Shown here in pieces: positions 14,083-38,978 of a stretch of DNA of 64,000 bases (position 1 is its first letter; the number at the start of each line of letters is the position of its first letter). This DNA is from Caldisphaera sp. (lineage in GTDB: Archaea > Thermoproteota > Thermoprotei_A > Sulfolobales > Acidilobaceae). The notes under the pieces are model-generated. The model saw only the letters and a program-made list of their open reading frames with translations. It was not told the origin of the DNA and made no database searches. The translations under genes were made by a program, and so were the position numbers. The stretch covers positions 50,675 through 114,674 of the forward strand of contig JBMFKU010000001.1 of the NCBI GenBank assembly GCA_049971805.1. The letters are read 5' to 3'.

Positions 14083-16941
14083 TTATGGTTTTTCCCACCA
14101 CCAAAACTCTGATTCTAAACCATTAGTGAACGATGGATTTGATTGCCAAGTCATGCTATTCTGGAACGAATTCATGTATGATCCTAATATCCATGCTTTG
14201 CTTGGAACAACAACATACACCATTATGTAAAGGTCTATAGCCTGTTGTTGTGTTTCGCGTATTATACTAGTGGCATTTGCCCATCCTTGTTCATCAGCTA
14301 AATCAGCTTCATTTATCATATCATTTAGTTGCTTGAATTGTTGGGATTCTTGCCAAATTAAAGCACCAACATATTTATTGCCAGTTGAATTAAATTGTGA
14401 TGAGAGTTGCTCTAAATAGGTAACATTCCATCCATCGGGTCCTCCATAAACTCCTCCTTCTTGATACATAAATGGTAGCCAATACCATGCTAATGGTATC
14501 CCATTCCAATCAAGATAATAAACTGGCATGGGATTAGCTCCAGGAACCATATAGCTTATTATTGTTGAAAACGGCATGTATAATGGAATTGCAGTTATAT
14601 ATGGATCCATTTCATGTAAGTTCTGTGCCCACATTTCTGCTGCTGTGAAATCAACAGTATCACCGCTTGATACAATTATTGGGAAGTTAACGCTTATATT
14701 ATAGAAGCCTGATTCTTCCATTAATTGTTTAGCATATGTCAAGTTAAATGTTGGGCAATTATTTAATTCTGATGGCGGAACAGGATAATCCATACCTTGC
14801 AATAATATACCGCACCATGGTTGACCTAAATTCATATGATATTTCGCATTTCCTAGTATATCATTTATATATTCTGTATAGTTAAATGCATATGCAAATG
14901 CCTCTCTAACTAATGGATTTGCAAAATAATAGCTTGGTATATTATAGCTTGGATTTATCTCTTTCAATAATGTTTCGCTTATATTTAAATTAAATGAAAA
15001 CCACCATTCATTTAATGACGGTTCACTATATATTTTTATTTTTCCTTGGCTTTCTAATTGCTGTAATGTTGGTATATATGGTGAAAATGAGCTTTTTGGA
15101 AAAGTAACTATGTCTGCTTCACCGCTTGCAAGCATATTTAATGCTGTTGTTGGATCTTTAACCCAATCAACAATAACAGTATCGTTAGGTCTTGGGAAAT
15201 AAGTTATATTATTAGGCCAGTATGGATTTGGTTTCAATACGACGCTTTGTCCAGGAGTATATGATGCTATGAAATAAGGACCAGTAAATCCTGCATTTGA
15301 AGAAGGCCATTGAACTTGAGTATTATAGTTTCCAACAATACATGTTTGCTGATATTGATAAAATGATTGAGCTAGTTGAGTATAGTTGCCATCATACAAC
15401 CCGGTTAGGTTTAATCCATCATTAACCTGATTTAACCATTTGGCATCCATTACGTAATCAAAAGTGGTCATCATGTTAAAGAAAAACTCTGGACTTACAG
15501 ATTGTATTAAGTTGAAAGTAATTGTGTTTGTCTGGTTATTATATGATACTGAATTGATTATTTCTTTAGCTCCTAATGAATCATTTGGTGATGTGACAAT
15601 AAATGAAAACATTGTATAATTAGGTACAGTAAATGGAGCCAAGTTGGTTCCACTGCCAGAAGGTACGCCACCAGCACATACTAACATTCTTATCATTGTA
15701 TACCATACATCATAAGCTGTTATAGGGTCCCCATTTGATGCTTTTAATCCTGGTCTTATCTTAAATATGTAAATCGTGTAATTTGGTGATATAGCTCCAT
15801 ATTTGTACCTATTAGTAACATTGCTCCAATTTCCAACTGTTGGTATGTATTCTGCAAGCATAGGTATAAATTGTGTTGTGCTTGATTGATAATACCAAAC
15901 CAAAGAGCCATATATATTGTTTATAATTTCATTACTGACTGTATCTGGGAATAGAGATGGGTCAAATGTAAATGGTCCTCCAGGAACAACTTCAGCATCA
16001 ACTATTACTCCAGGATTAGGTATGCTGGATTGTATAGAATATAAATTAAATTGCATGTTTTCTGATGAAACTGCTACTGTATGGTAGACTGTGTAATTAT
16101 AAGTTTTACCAGATGAAATGTTTTCTGTAACAATTGTTAAGCTTATTGGATATAATCCTGGTGTGTTAAATGAAACTGTTATTGGATTTTTAACAGGTTC
16201 TATATAGCTAATGTTTCCGGATCTAGTTAAGAAAACCTGCTCAGCATAGCCAGTTGAATTTCTTGCAGGTAAAGTGATTTTTGTGCCATTACCAAATGAT
16301 ATTATGTACTCCTTTATTGTTATGTTATTTCCAGAAGGAGGTTGGAGGAAGCCCAAAGACAAATTAAATGGCTGATTAATTGCAATTACAGGACCTTTAT
16401 TAATTGCAATTACAGGAACAGTTATATAATTGGATTCATTGAAGCTTATATATGGTGTTACTACAATTTCTATTAGGTTATTAGATGAAGAACCAATCAA
16501 GTTTCCTTGACTATATATGTTATAATAGACCAAGTATGAGCCAGGATAATTAAATGTTAAATTAAAATATTGATTTGTTACATTAATTATTTTACCTGAT
16601 CCATCATATACCAAGGCGTAATATCCCGGTTTAAAGTTAGGTATTGATACCTCTAATGGTTGACCAGCTAATGCTGAATAACTTTCAGGTATTAGGGGTT
16701 GCAAAGATTGCAAGGTTGTTGTAGAAGTAGTTGTAAATGTAGAAGTAGAAGTAGTTGTAAATGTAGAAGTAGAAGTAGTTGTAGATATACTTTGAGTGCT
16801 TGTAGTTGTAGAAGTAGAAGTTTGCGGCTTCTTTGAATTATAATAGACTAATGAAGCACCTGCAATTACAACTATAACAACAACTATTACAGCCAATACA
16901 GATTTAGATAAATTTCTATTTCTAAAAATTATTCTATCCAT
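14083..16941 (-). CDS. ABC transporter substrate-binding protein (family 5, peptide/nickel type) with Thr/Ser linker and extra N-terminal beta domain
   Basis: N-terminal TM anchor, Thr/Ser tract, then TFDP, YIFKIRPGLKASNGDPITAYDVWY, FTGPYFI, NPLVREAFAYAFNY. Confidence 0.85.
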   Translation of the reverse strand: MDRIIFRNRNLSKSVLAVIVVVIVVIAGASLVYYNSKKPQTSTSTTTSTQSISTTTSTSTFTTTSTSTFTTTSTTTLQSLQPLIPESYSALAGQPLEVSIPNFKPGYYALVYDGSGKIINVTNQYFNLTFNYPGSYLVYYNIYSQGNLIGSSSNNLIEIVVTPYISFNESNYITVPVIAINKGPVIAINQPFNLSLGFLQPPSGNNITIKEYIISFGNGTKITLPARNSTGYAEQVFLTRSGNISYIEPVKNPITVSFNTPGLYPISLTIVTENISSGKTYNYTVYHTVAVSSENMQFNLYSIQSSIPNPGVIVDAEVVPGGPFTFDPSLFPDTVSNEIINNIYGSLVWYYQSSTTQFIPMLAEYIPTVGNWSNVTNRYKYGAISPNYTIYIFKIRPGLKASNGDPITAYDVWYTMIRMLVCAGGVPSGSGTNLAPFTVPNYTMFSFIVTSPNDSLGAKEIINSVSYNNQTNTITFNLIQSVSPEFFFNMMTTFDYVMDAKWLNQVNDGLNLTGLYDGNYTQLAQSFYQYQQTCIVGNYNTQVQWPSSNAGFTGPYFIASYTPGQSVVLKPNPYWPNNITYFPRPNDTVIVDWVKDPTTALNMLASGEADIVTFPKSSFSPYIPTLQQLESQGKIKIYSEPSLNEWWFSFNLNISETLLKEINPSYNIPSYYFANPLVREAFAYAFNYTEYINDILGNAKYHMNLGQPWCGILLQGMDYPVPPSELNNCPTFNLTYAKQLMEESGFYNISVNFPIIVSSGDTVDFTAAEMWAQNLHEMDPYITAIPLYMPFSTIISYMVPGANPMPVYYLDWNGIPLAWYWLPFMYQEGGVYGGPDGWNVTYLEQLSSQFNSTGNKYVGALIWQESQQFKQLNDMINEADLADEQGWANATSIIRETQQQAIDLYIMVYVVVPSKAWILGSYMNSFQNSMTWQSNPSFTNGLESEFWWWEKP
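16721..16783. repeat. 24-bp coding tandem repeat (about 2.6 copies) encoding the Thr/Ser linker
   Basis: GTAGAAGTAGTTGTAAATGTAGAA at 16721 and 16745, partial at 16769. Confidence 0.9.
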
Positions 16942-34399: not shown

Positions 34400-35638
34400 A
34401 TGCATTGGGGAACGTTAATGTTAATAGAGAAAGTTATACAAAACATGTTTAATAATTATAATTGGAAATTAAAAGAGGTAGACAGTTTTAATCCTCCTTA
34501 TTATGATAGGAAATTAGCATTATATATACACGTTCCATTTTGTACGTCTCTTTGTCCGTTCTGTATATTTCATAGCATCTTATACAAACCGAGTCTAAAA
34601 AAAGGTTATTTTGATGCGCTCAAAAAAGAATTAGAGAAATATATATCAATGGGCTTTAATTTTTCTACTATATATATTGGTGGAGGTACGCCAACATTAG
34701 CTACAGAAGAAGTGTGCGATTTATTGGATTACATAAAGGAGTACAATAAAATTGATGATATTTCTATCGAGGCTTCACCTTATGATATTAATGATGAAAA
34801 AGTTTCGGAGCTTGAAAAAACAGGCATAACAAGGTTATCATTAGGTGTTGAATCTTTTGTACCTGTTATACAAAGAAAAATAGGAAGACAACAAGTTAAC
34901 ACTGAGGAATTATTGGAAAAGATAGATATAGCTTCAAAGATACCAACGTTAAATGTTGATATTCTTTTCAATATACCAGGTCAAAAAAAAGAAGATTTAG
35001 TTAATGAAATTGATATTGTTAAAAAAAGCAAGGCTAATCAAATAACCTTTTATCCAATTATGCCATCAATAAGACAAGCTCCTAAGGAATTTATGTATCC
35101 TGATGAAAAAAATGAAAAAATGTTATATAATGTGTTAACTAATCAATTTTCAGATAGCGATTATTATCAATCTACAGCGTGGACCTTTTCTAAAAATCAA
35201 GGCTCAATAGTTGATGAATATATAATAGATAACGATGATTTCATAGGAGTTGGCACTGGCGCTATGAGCCATCTATCGCAATACTATTATGCAAATTCAT
35301 TTAGTTTAGAAAAATATGAAAAAATGATTAATAATGGTAAATTTTCCATTTCATTATTAAGAGAATTAAATCTTAAAGATCAAATTTATATATATTTAAT
35401 TTATAGGTTGTATTCTTTAAAAATTAATAAAAAAGAATTTGAAACTAAGTTTAACCATGATATATATCATTATCTTAGAAGTGAAATTAATCTATTAAGC
35501 TTCTTAGGTATAATAAAAGATGATGGTAATTACTTTAAGGTTACAAATAATGGAAAGTACTATTCTAATTTGTTTATGAAATATTTATATATTAATATTT
35601 CAAATATAAGAAAGTATGCAATTCAAAATAAGATATGA
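34400..35638 (+). CDS. HemN-like class C radical SAM protein, MqnK/MenK-like menaquinone methyltransferase
   Basis: YIHVPFCTSLCPFC radical SAM motif, GGGTP, QITFYPIM (QxTxYPLM-like), STAWTFS, DEYII. No HemW HNxxYW motif. Confidence 0.7.
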   Translation: MHWGTLMLIEKVIQNMFNNYNWKLKEVDSFNPPYYDRKLALYIHVPFCTSLCPFCIFHSILYKPSLKKGYFDALKKELEKYISMGFNFSTIYIGGGTPTLATEEVCDLLDYIKEYNKIDDISIEASPYDINDEKVSELEKTGITRLSLGVESFVPVIQRKIGRQQVNTEELLEKIDIASKIPTLNVDILFNIPGQKKEDLVNEIDIVKKSKANQITFYPIMPSIRQAPKEFMYPDEKNEKMLYNVLTNQFSDSDYYQSTAWTFSKNQGSIVDEYIIDNDDFIGVGTGAMSHLSQYYYANSFSLEKYEKMINNGKFSISLLRELNLKDQIYIYLIYRLYSLKINKKEFETKFNHDIYHYLRSEINLLSFLGIIKDDGNYFKVTNNGKYYSNLFMKYLYINISNIRKYAIQNKI

Positions 35639-35807
35639 CATTAAATTTAATTACATTATGTAAATAAAAATTAAAAATTTAACATTTTAGTTAAAATATA
35701 AAAATTTATGTAGATGTTTTAGACTAGGTAAAAAGAAATATTTAAAAGGCAGAAACAATAAAAAAATATTAGTAATTTAGGTGGGGTAGATGCAAAGCCA
35801 AATTTAA

Positions 35808-35898
35808 ATTTAGTTGGTCATAATTTTATCACTCATTTAGTTGGTCATAATTTTATCACTCATTTAGTTGGTCATAATTTTATCACTCATTTAGTTGG
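35808..35898. repeat. Perfect 27-bp tandem repeat, three copies plus partial fourth, in the ilvB leader
   Basis: ATTTAGTTGGTCATAATTTTATCACTC at 35808, 35835 and 35862, partial at 35889; no spacers. Confidence 0.97.
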
Positions 35899-35919
35899 GG
35901 TGATTTCATTATGACAAAT
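35867..35919 (+). promoter_or_regulatory. Predicted RBS/start-codon-sequestering hairpin of ilvB
   Basis: ATCACTC (35882-88) pairs with GGGTGAT (35898-904), and GTCATAAT (35871-78) pairs with ATTATGAC (35908-15), separated by a 3x3 pyrimidine internal loop. Confidence 0.65.
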
Positions 35920-37609
35920 GGATCATCATTGGTTGTTCAATCATTAAAAAAAGAAGGAGTAAAAACAATATTTGGAATACCAGGACTGTCAAATATGCCA
36001 ATATATGATGCGCTCTATGATTATGTTAATTCTGGCGAAATAAGGCAAATATTAATGAAACATGAGCAGGCAGCAGCACATGCAGCCGATGGTTTTTCAA
36101 GAGCATCTGGATTTCCAGGCGTTTGTACTGCTACATCAGGTCCAGGCGCAATAAATTTAGCAACAGGACTAATAACTGCATACTGGGATAGCTCTCCTCT
36201 AATAGCAATTACTGGGCAGGTCCCTAGAAACTCTATGGGAAAAATGGCGTTTCAAGAGGCAGATGTTATGGGTGTTATGGAAAATATAACTAAATATATA
36301 GTAAAAATCAAAAATATAAAAGAAATACCGATTTGGATTAAAAATTCATTTTATATATCAATGACTGGAAGAAAAGGGCCTGTTGTAATAGATATTCCAA
36401 GGGATATATTGCAAGAAAGTATTGATGATATAGAATGGCCAGAAAAACCAAGTGTCAAAGGTTATAAAGAATTTATAACAGAAGTTGATTTAGAAAAAAT
36501 CAAGAAAGTAGCGAAGATGTTGCTTGAGGCTGAAAGACCAATAATTGTTGTAGGTACTGGGGTTATGTATTCAAACGCCTATAATCAAGTATTAAACTTA
36601 TCAGAGCAATTACTTGTTCCAATAGTTTCAACTCTTCCTGGAAAAGCCTCAATACCTAATGATTTTCCACTTTACTTTGGTGTAATAGGCTATTATGGCA
36701 GGGCTGAAGCCAATAGGGCTCTGCTCGAGTCAGACTTTATGTTAATATTAGGCTCCAGAATTAGCGATAGATCATTTACATCACTTGACGAAATTACAGA
36801 AACCAAAAAGAAGATAGTTATGGTAAACTTAGATCCTGTAGATAATGAAAAATATAACATAGCAAGCTTAACATTAAATGGTGATATAAAAATAATTTTA
36901 AATCAAATAATCGATGCCATTAGTAAAATCAAATTAGAAAAGAAAGATAAGAATTTATGGATTAAAAATATAACTGAATGGAAAGATGAATATTCTAAGT
37001 ATTATTATATAGAAGATAAGAATTACATGAAACCATGGAAGATATTAAAAACTATAAGAGAAGTCTTGCCTAGGGATGCAATTGTTACAACAGGTGTTGG
37101 AGAGCATCAAATGTTTGCAGAAGTCTTTTGGGATGTACTTGAACCAAGGACATTCTTTACTTCGTCAGGTATGGGTACAATGGGTTTTGGATTTCCAGCA
37201 GCTATGGGAGCTAAAGTAGCGAGACCTGATAAGATAGTCGTCAATCTAGACGGTGATGGCTCTTTTTTAATGACAGGCAATAATTTGGCAACTGCGGTTG
37301 ATGAAAATATACCTGTTATCTCAGTAATATTTGATAATAGAACTCTAGGTTTGGTAAGACAAGTTCAAGATCTATTTTTTGGAAAAAGAATAGTAGGGGT
37401 TGATTTCGGTATGTCTCCGGATTTTGTTAAATATGCAGAGTCTTTTGGGGCTATTGGATATAATGCAGAATCATATGAAGGTTTAGAAAAATCATTAAAA
37501 GATGCAATCAAAAGCAATATGCCTTCAGTAATAAGAGTACCGATTAATAGGGAAGAATTAGCTTTACCAACGTTACCTCCTGGAGGTAAATTAAAGCAGG
37601 TGATATTAA

Positions 37610-37623
<14 letters not shown>
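35911..37623 (+). CDS. ilvB: Acetolactate synthase large subunit
   Basis: FGIPG, KHEQAAAHAADG, ATSGPGAINL, ITGQV, AFQEAD, TGVGEHQM, GMGTMGFG, DGDGSFLM...N TPP motif. Confidence 0.95.

Positions 37624-38978
<1,355 letters not shown>

Follow-up and report, generated by a model that had tools for sequence, protein, structure and literature searches.

A 27-bp tandem array complementary to the ilvB ribosome-binding site lies within a conserved stop-free frame upstream of the ilvBNC operon in Caldisphaera sp.

The stretch analysed here (hereafter the window) comprises 64,000 nt of the Caldisphaera sp. contig JBMFKU010000001.1 and is A+T-rich, with a G+C content of 31%. It carries an ilvBNC operon that is immediately preceded by a perfect tandem array of 27-bp units, each containing a segment complementary to the ribosome-binding site (RBS) of ilvB. 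The operon encodes the large subunit of acetolactate synthase (ilvB), its ACT-domain small subunit (ilvN) and ketol-acid reductoisomerase (ilvC), and Pfam matches confirmed for all three genes the identity proposed in an initial annotation that had been made by a model from the sequence alone. The N-terminus of IlvB is in line with those of its homologues in alignments. Coordinates of the features discussed below are collected in Table 1.

Tandem Repeats Finder describes the array as 3.4 copies of the 27-bp unit ATTTAGTTGGTCATAATTTTATCACTC, with 100% matches and a score of 182. The pattern GTCATAAT-N3-ATCAC occurs on the plus strand at 35817, 35844 and 35871, once in each full unit, and a single time on the minus strand, at 35900–35915, where it covers both the Shine-Dalgarno (SD) sequence GGGGTGAT and the ATG of ilvB. 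Only 0.11 matches to this pattern were expected, and none of 100 shuffled sequences reached the four observed. The complementarity of perfect upstream units to the SD and start codon, which the initial annotation had pointed out, is thus exact and non-random, and the same pairing register is available from every unit, which agrees with the alternative pairing by upstream units proposed there. The exact 27-bp unit was absent from the 185,579 species genomes searched.

Table 1. Features of the ilvBNC upstream region in the window (positions are those of the 64,000-nt stretch).
Feature	Position	Strand	Description	Basis
BRE/TATA-like box (TFIIB recognition element and TATA box)	35740..35749	+	ATTTAAAAGG; inferred ilvBNC leader promoter	same position as relatives' TATA boxes (alignment)
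Open −1 frame ('frame 2')	35762..35914	+	50 codons, KNISNLGGVDAKPNLN(LVGHNFITH)x3LVGVISL; TGA overlaps ilvB ATG (ATGA)	translation
SD-like element	35780..35787	+	GGTGGGGT; 2 nt before the ATG of upstream open reading frame 1 (uORF1)	10–11 nt 5′ of box CAA, as in all relatives
uORF1	35790..35807	+	ATG CAA AGC CAA ATT TAA (MQSQI-stop); box CCAAAT at 35798–35803	sequence, comparison
Tandem array	35808..35898	+	units 35808–35834, 35835–35861, 35862–35888; partial unit 35889–35898	Tandem Repeats Finder, exact units
Abutting mini-ORF chain, uORF1 frame	35814..35903	+	TTG GTC ATA ATT TTA TCA CTC ATT TAG = (M)VIILSLI-stop, three times	
Anti-RBS segment	35817..35832	+	GTCATAATTTTATCAC in unit 1; again 35844–35859 (unit 2) and 35871–35886 (unit 3)	motif search
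Predicted RBS-masking hairpin	35871..35915	+	5′ arm 35871–35888, loop 35889–35897, 3′ arm 35898–35915 (SD and ATG)	folding prediction
ilvB ribosome-binding site	35897..35913	+	SD GGGGTGAT 35897–35904, 6-nt spacer, ATG 35911–35913	sequence
ilvB, ilvN and ilvC (ilvBNC operon)	35911..38978	+		Pfam; overlapping stops/starts

The array is genuine. A second metagenome-assembled genome (MAG; locus L251, ilvB 99.94% identical) has the same 3.4 periods, a third assembly (L006) has a gap of Ns within the array, and a contig from the JGI (Joint Genome Institute; L007) ends within it. We looked for the array in Logan unitigs (31-mers) of four hot-spring metagenome runs. All four contain it as cyclic pieces made up of exactly 27 k-mers (57 nt, or 50+37 nt), which require a periodic array of at least 58 nt. 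In run X1 the cyclic 31-mers have a depth of 499–550 and the flanks one of 77–84, so that each word should be present about 6–7 times per genome, where 2.3 times is expected for 91 nt; this corresponds to about 190–220 nt, or 7–8 periods, an estimate that other strains or loci carrying the same unit would inflate. The 3.4 periods of the assemblies are therefore probably the shortest path of the assembler. The perfect array of the initial annotation stands, whereas its count of three units is probably an assembler minimum; the assembly artefact that it had listed as a possible refutation finds no support in the second MAG and the four metagenome runs. Run X3, which comes from another study, contains a perfectly periodic variant with 4 differences per 57-nt cyclic unitig (window 35836–35892), that is, about 2 per unit, and the accompanying ilvB fragment is about 95% identical. 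The depth ratio of this variant is about 2, equivalent to about 3 periods. The units of the array thus appear to evolve in concert, and their number may vary between populations.

Folding predicts that the last unit pairs with the RBS in a hairpin whose 8-bp stem (GUCAUAAU/AUUAUGAC) is separated by a 3x3 internal loop (UUU/UUC) from a 7-bp stem (AUCACUC/GGGUGAU) closed by 9 unpaired nt, the very structure that had been drawn in the initial annotation. Its minimum free energy is −16.6 kcal/mol at 37°C (z = −3.86), and none of 200 shuffled sequences folded equally well. Heating lowers the predicted stability: the values are −16.6/−18.3 kcal/mol at 37°C, −7.2 at 60°C and −1.5 at 75°C. In partition-function folding, the pairing probabilities of the SD and the AUG are 0.90 and 0.98 at 65°C, 0.82 and 0.87 at 75°C and about 0.5 at 85°C; that of the AUG declines to 0.69 at 80°C and 0.45 at 85°C, so that the extrapolated model describes a gradual opening from 70°C with a midpoint at about 85°C. 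When all units are deleted in silico, the values for SD and AUG at 65°C become 0.63 and 0.10.

We gathered ilvB upstream regions from Sulfolobales, Caldisphaera, Ignisphaera, Desulfurococcaceae and Acidilobaceae. The window IlvB itself is found on three public-assembly contigs; its 90%-identity cluster consists of three proteins, one of which is encoded by DNA 99.94% identical to the window and bears the NCBI name 'Caldisphaera sp.'. The next relatives do not exceed 71% identity (a metagenome contig at 71%, C. lagunensis at 70%, then Sulfolobales), and the closest relative in a metagenome scan with the window IlvB was at 69%. Except in two Acidilobaceae, all leaders share a common design, which is represented by 27 leaders from Sulfolobales, Caldisphaera, Ignisphaera and Desulfurococcaceae: a BRE/TATA box is followed after about 25 nt by a short ATG-led ORF that contains a conserved box, then by 63–123 variable nucleotides, a strong SD and the ilvB start. 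These elements lie about 60–180 nt upstream of ilvB in the family loci (L001–L004, L008, L011, L012, L014, L015, L092–L103, L110, L231, L234, L237, L238, L240, L241 and L246–L248) and at 35780–35807 in the window.

The short ORF ends in [L/S]-Q-[I/V]-(0–2 aa)-stop in 25 of the 27 leaders first collected and in the four added later, and is missing from the two Acidilobaceae leaders. Its peptide is MRSQI-stop in C. lagunensis, M-I-G-D/E-x-T-L-Q-V/I-(x)-stop in Sulfolobales and MELQV-x-stop in Ignisphaera. The box, CCA-ART, is invariant and is preceded at 7–13 nt by GGTGR; the uORF stop follows it after 0–2 codons in most leaders and after 3 in L011 and L100, counted there from the first of two boxes. 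The composite GGTGR-N(5–16)-CCAART occurs at one place per locus, on the coding strand of the ilvB leader, the sole exception being a further match in L011 that is due to chance; in the 64-kb window it is found at 35780 only. A 14-base degenerate version of the Sulfolobales box was too unspecific for a search of genome contigs and returned only chance bacterial matches. Pairing of the box with the ilvB SD, as an anti-SD mimic, was dropped on inspection because only 4 bp are possible. The Acidilobaceae MAGs L104 and L105 lack a CCA-ART box in the region about 90–130 nt upstream of ilvB, where they share another motif, GGTGTC..TTTGGTTTTGAA..GCAC.TCAAT. No Rfam family matched the window or seven related leaders at gathering or permissive thresholds, and no description of an archaeal ilvB leader was found in the open-access literature searched, in agreement with the initial remark that no described cis-regulator of this form was known in crenarchaea.

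These leaders also share an open reading frame in the −1 register relative to the uORF. Stops were counted from the box to 18 nt before ilvB in the 27 leaders (748 codons): the uORF frame contains 120, the +1 frame 25 and the −1 frame none, where dinucleotide shuffles lead one to expect about 57 per frame. For 18 lineage representatives, the product of the per-leader chances of an open −1 frame is 3e-17. In every leader the end of the −1 frame falls near the first base of the ilvB start, from 11 nt ahead of it to 17 nt past it; besides the ATGA of the window, it ends as TAATG in two Ignisphaera and with an 8-nt overlap in many Sulfolobales. The distance from the box to the ilvB ATG (63–123 nt) is a multiple of three in 17 of 20 leaders, and indels in pairwise alignments of leaders are mostly multiples of three (3 or 9 nt). 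Saccharolobus is among the few groups that break the multiple-of-three rule; relative to the metagenome contig (locus L241), cultured strains carry two leader differences, T>A at 1466 and the loss of 1 nt at 1487, and this deletion shifts the frame relation between box and ilvB. Leu (1.43x), Ile (1.33x) and Val (1.28x) are enriched in the −1 frame and Phe is depleted (0.69x). Branched-chain amino acids (BCAA) account for 33% of the conserved frame vs 24% in shuffles, with no long run in most relatives.

Three Ignisphaera, Desulfurococcaceae and Sulfuracidifex have an ATG or GTG of their own in the −1 frame near the transcription start, and in C. lagunensis, two Saccharolobus and one other leader a TTG of this frame overlaps the uORF stop as TTTGA. 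The window, S. acidocaldarius, S. tokodaii and Acidianus have no canonical start in this frame. In Sulfolobales the +1 frame is also open, from the GTG of the invariant GGTGA to the ilvB start and often with a TAATG end (1097–1200 in L234, 1391–1500 in L110); codon-shuffle tests indicate that the openness of neither the −1 nor the +1 frame is a by-product of the other. Two overlapping open frames beside a stop-laden third make an unusual arrangement. Two other lineages carry short duplications in the leader: C. lagunensis has an imperfect duplication of 21 nt at the same place (2946–2987 in L008, 3 mismatches), read in its uORF frame as (M)LVPVQKLLVLVQR-stop and ending in the SD, and an Ignisphaera MAG (L003, 2935–2952) has a doubled 9-nt GTAACATTA that adds Val-Thr-Leu. 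Duplications that keep the frame and add BCAA codons are thus a recurrent feature of this leader.

The array fits this framework, since its unit amounts to nine codons and all frames are kept at any copy number. The peptide of one unit is LVGHNFITH in the −1 register; in that of the uORF it is (M)VIILSLI-stop. The resulting mini-ORFs (35814–35840, 35841–35867 and 35868–35894) are joined as TAG TTG, the first beginning 6 nt past the uORF stop, and they are followed by a last one, TTG GGG TGA (35895–35903), whose stop lies inside the ilvB SD, 7 nt before the ATG. Of the 7 sense codons that a unit has in the uORF frame, 6 specify BCAA, and the codons Val-Ile-Ile-Leu-Ser-Leu coincide exactly with the anti-RBS arm. 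The BCAA fraction of the mini-ORF frame in the window is 0.72 vs 0.31 in shuffles. Tiny Met-Gly-stop ORFs in the uORF frame stand at both ends of the leader, as GTG GGG TAG (35781–35789), which abuts the uORF ATG, and as the last mini-ORF; this pair may be a coincidence.

Evidence that such leaders are transcribed comes from stranded raw RNA-seq reads of four culture runs of Saccharolobus, which we mapped on locus L241 (ilvB start at 1501). Coding-strand coverage is 1–26 upstream of the promoter region, shows a small step at 1364–1377, rises between 1364 and 1484 from about 28 to 515 and then 1350, and is about 1400 at the ilvB start, with no second step at ilvB. The 5′ ends pile up at 1380 and at 1385/6, 115–121 nt before the ilvB start. 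The TATA box (1340–1347) predicts initiation near 1370, at the G of GTGAAAAAGATG, and ordinary stranded libraries lose the first 10–15 nt or so of a transcript. The Saccharolobus leader therefore measures 115 nt or more, box included. In Acd1-type Sulfolobales, metatranscriptome contigs likewise extend to 58–117 nt upstream of ilvB without covering the gene before it. By homology with these leaders, the window repeat is very probably transcribed within the ilvB mRNA. In L241, positions 1385/6 are the GG of GGTGA and may mark a second, leaderless GTG start in the +1 frame. In runs X39 and X42 ('organism C'), many short inserts end at 1510–1518, before an ATTTT run 18 nt into ilvB, a possible sign of a separate RNA of leader length, about 130 nt; this was not seen in X40 and X41.

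The initial annotation had interpreted the array as a translational OFF switch for the operon. The exact complementarity to SD and AUG and the probable transcription of the leader make RBS masking the natural reading. With the repeat placed in a conserved frame that is free of stops and runs up to the ilvB start codon, the likely mechanism shifts towards leader translation (coupling or attenuation) and away from a free-standing RNA switch. We tentatively favour, at a little under an even chance, the interpretation that the array is a slippage-prone, in-frame (9-codon) minisatellite in the ilvBNC 5′ leader, where RBS masking ties ilvB to ribosomes that traverse the leader. The 3′-most free unit would close the ilvB RBS in the 8+7 bp hairpin, so that free ribosomes could not start on ilvB. 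A ribosome in the leader would melt the hairpin and terminate at the RBS, passing to ilvB by termination-reinitiation coupling; alternatively, a ribosome stalled on Ile, Leu or Val codons on or just before the 5′ arm would leave the RBS open, as in erm/cat-type translational attenuation. The travelling ribosome could be in the −1 frame, which is free of stops, or could move from one abutting UUG mini-ORF to the next. The output of ilvBNC would then be tied to leader translation and to the supply of Ile-, Leu- and Val-tRNA.

Several observations weigh against this interpretation. Between 35762 and 35899, the −1 frame of the window contains no ATG, GTG or TTG, and the mini-ORFs have UUG starts without SD and would need reinitiation over a 6-nt gap. 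Substitutions between close leader pairs are spread evenly over the three codon positions (78:77:81), which implies that the peptide sequence is not under selection, and a conserved functional leader peptide was dropped for this reason; the pattern has the signature of selection on the translatability of the leader region, perhaps on its codon content, and not on the encoded peptide. A BCAA content of 33% in the −1 frame is only slightly above the usual level of a proteome. At 65°C, the predicted probability that the AUG is paired is 0.97 with one unit and 0.98 with 2 to 7. One unit thus suffices, and tuning by copy number, which the initial annotation had suggested, fails in an equilibrium model. 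All energies at 65–85°C are extrapolations of the nearest-neighbour model. RBS pairing above that of shuffled leaders was not seen in C. lagunensis (0.38 vs 0.40 at 65°C) nor in most Sulfolobales; complementarity in relatives, the lack of which had been named as a refutation, is thus not conserved, and by this comparison masking is a lineage-specific addition to a conserved leader. The transcription start in Caldisphaera sp. is placed by homology, and in Saccharolobus coverage does not fall from the leader to ilvB, which gives no sign of premature termination under those conditions.

A related possibility concerns the way ribosomes would enter the −1 frame. The box could be an amino-acid-sensing 'hungry-codon' frameshift site, an idea that we consider quite unlikely. 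Ribosomes would start on the uORF and come to the CAA, at which point the A site contains an RTN codon, invariably one for Ile or Val. With ample charged tRNA-Ile or tRNA-Val, RTN would be decoded, translation would stop 0–2 codons later, and the masked or weak ilvB RBS would remain unused; when it is scarce, the ribosome would slip into the −1 frame (in Sulfolobales also the +1 frame), read through the leader (in the window, the array), open the hairpin and hand over at the stop/start. The invariant Ile/Val codon, the SD-like element 10–11 nt upstream and an early stop in the zero frame with a long open −1 frame beyond it fit this scheme, and a spacing of about 10 nt is that of the SD-like stimulator of bacterial dnaX. 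The absence of a slippery heptamer and the −1 start codons that some lineages possess count against it: in the zero frame the box reads xxC CAA RTN, and inspection shows that neither the P-site nor the A-site tRNA re-pairs after a −1 shift. We know of no frameshift-based attenuator in any domain of life. The closest parallel in Sulfolobales is the −1 frameshifting of fucA1 in Saccharolobus solfataricus (PMC1616953; reviewed in PMC8211752), which resembles the leaders in that a short zero-frame ORF stops after a conserved site, a long −1 frame is open and an SD-like element lies about 10 nt upstream; the leaders differ from it in having no X XXY YYZ heptamer at the box, no known transframe product and, in some lineages, their own −1 start.

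The favoured interpretation, an in-frame minisatellite that couples ilvB to leader translation, has to be weighed against several rival explanations. The array could be a near-neutral minisatellite, produced by slippage that multiplied a 27-bp piece holding one hairpin arm, with only the last copy or none being of consequence and copy number devoid of regulatory meaning. The complete identity of the units, linker included, points to recent or ongoing slippage, and the number of copies seems to differ between data sets (3.4 in two MAGs, unresolved in two assemblies, about 7–8 in X1 and about 3 in X3). Furthermore, predicted masking does not grow with further units, all codon positions of the leader evolve rapidly and masking is absent in relatives. 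However, the period is a multiple of three and the conserved frame stays open, two other lineages have in-frame duplications in the same leader segment, and the 13 specified bases of the inverted match are exact over SD and AUG, a result that would hardly arise unless by selection or templated mutation. We regard neutrality as somewhat unlikely. An assembly artefact, with the triplication missing from the genome, is extremely improbable; the gap and the broken contig indicate that assemblers struggle here, but two MAGs carry the array, four runs yield cyclic unitigs, and the depth ratio calls for more copies, not fewer.

A DNA-level role is unlikely in our view. The 16-mers might be four operators for an amino-acid-responsive regulator of the Lrp/FFRP type, or, of the weak TATA-like boxes (AATTTTAT) present in each unit, the last might drive a leaderless ilvB. 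Lrp-family proteins control bacterial ilv genes and bind arrays of such sites; on inspection, the 16-mer is palindromic at 12 of 16 positions with an A+T-rich centre, the centres are spaced by 27, 27 and 29 bp (about 2.6 helical turns), and the TATA-like box is centred about 30 nt before the ATG. Yet the fourth copy matches at 13 of 13 positions in inverted orientation only and at 10 of 16 in direct orientation, as predicted by complementarity and not by a symmetric operator. The sites are absent from relatives and lie about 45–145 nt downstream of the inferred transcription start, and no Lrp-type gene is present within about 8 kb. The strong, well-spaced SD of ilvB, as in all relatives, argues against a promoter in the last unit, and Saccharolobus shows no second RNA step at ilvB. 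An RNA thermometer, also mentioned in the initial annotation, would consist of the A+U-rich hairpin with its internal loop masking SD and AUG when cooler and melting as the spring heats. The probability that the AUG is paired does decrease gradually from 0.98 at 65°C to 0.45 at 85°C, over the range in which Caldisphaera grows. But physiology offers no reason to place a BCAA biosynthetic operon under temperature control, C. lagunensis and other thermophilic relatives do not share the masking, the conserved leader frames are left unaddressed, and the energy model, which places the midpoint at about 85°C, is unreliable at such temperatures; a thermometer therefore appears highly unlikely. The metabolite-binding element that had been proposed as well is unlikely because neither the unit nor the masking is conserved in the nearest relatives, and a riboswitch is disfavoured by the lack of a conserved fold and of an Rfam match together with the absence of the unit from relatives.

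Among known systems, the closest in architecture are the erm/cat-type attenuators (ermC, cat86, cmlA) and the leaderless short ORFs of mycobacteria that respond to Cys (bioRxiv 10.1101/834739), where the RBS is buried in a hairpin whose 5′ arm lies in a short upstream frame. In the mycobacterial case, the likeness would extend to sensor codons for the very amino acid whose supply is controlled. The window RBS is predicted to be sequestered in a stable hairpin (z = −3.86), and its 5′ arm lies both in the −1 frame, which has no start codon, and in UUG mini-ORFs without SD. As opposed to the erm/cat attenuators, the window element belongs to an archaeon, and has a tandemly multiplied arm and a long frame without start codon. 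Bacterial ilv attenuators (ivbL-ilvBN and ilvL-ilvGMEDA of E. coli, ilvBNC of C. glutamicum; PMC11857589) share with it an Ile/Leu/Val-rich leader ORF upstream of an acetolactate synthase operon, and the regulatory logic would be alike. They differ in acting on RNA polymerase, whereas the target in the window would be the RBS; BCAA enrichment is modest in the conserved −1 frame. Neither a terminator/antiterminator pair nor a terminator-like hairpin with a T run was found in 35500–36100 by a scan for bacterial-type promoters and terminators, which is uninformative here.

Termination-reinitiation coupling offers a third comparison. ATGA overlaps, such as that of the window, are its commonest arrangement in archaea and bacteria (PMC6728339, PMC10666635), and a masked downstream RBS is the classical route to obligatory coupling. 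A stop-start distance of −8 to +10 nt was predictive of termination-reinitiation in experiments on Haloferax and E. coli (PMC10666635), and most of the −1 stops of the 27 leaders fall within this range. Initiation on the upstream ORF has no counterpart in the −1 frame of the window, which has no start codon, and the upstream partner differs in being a non-conserved leader peptide instead of a protein gene. RNA thermometers of the fourU and ROSE types resemble the window hairpin by enclosing SD and AUG in an A+U-rich stem with an internal loop; the window element is not conserved, serves no temperature-related gene and lies within reading frames.

Elsewhere in the window, a perfect 24-bp tandem repeat of two copies lies at 16721–16768. 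The minus strand of this stretch reads as a low-complexity peptide rich in Ser and Thr (..TSTSTFTTTSTSTFTTT..), which is probably a linker within a secreted or surface protein.

The usual picture of Crenarchaea is one of mostly leaderless mRNAs and very few cis-acting RNA regulators. To our knowledge, whether ribosome-mediated attenuation of amino-acid operons exists in Archaea is an open question. If neutral slippage is the true explanation, the repeat is a curiosity, and the conserved stop-free leader frame still calls for an explanation. The Caldisphaera version would provide a natural copy-number series of an RBS-masking element, of use for the study of tandem repeats and of translation at high temperature. 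Together with the family of 27 leaders, whose cultured carriers include S. acidocaldarius, Saccharolobus, S. tokodaii and C. lagunensis, the locus constitutes a concrete and testable candidate for attenuation in Archaea.

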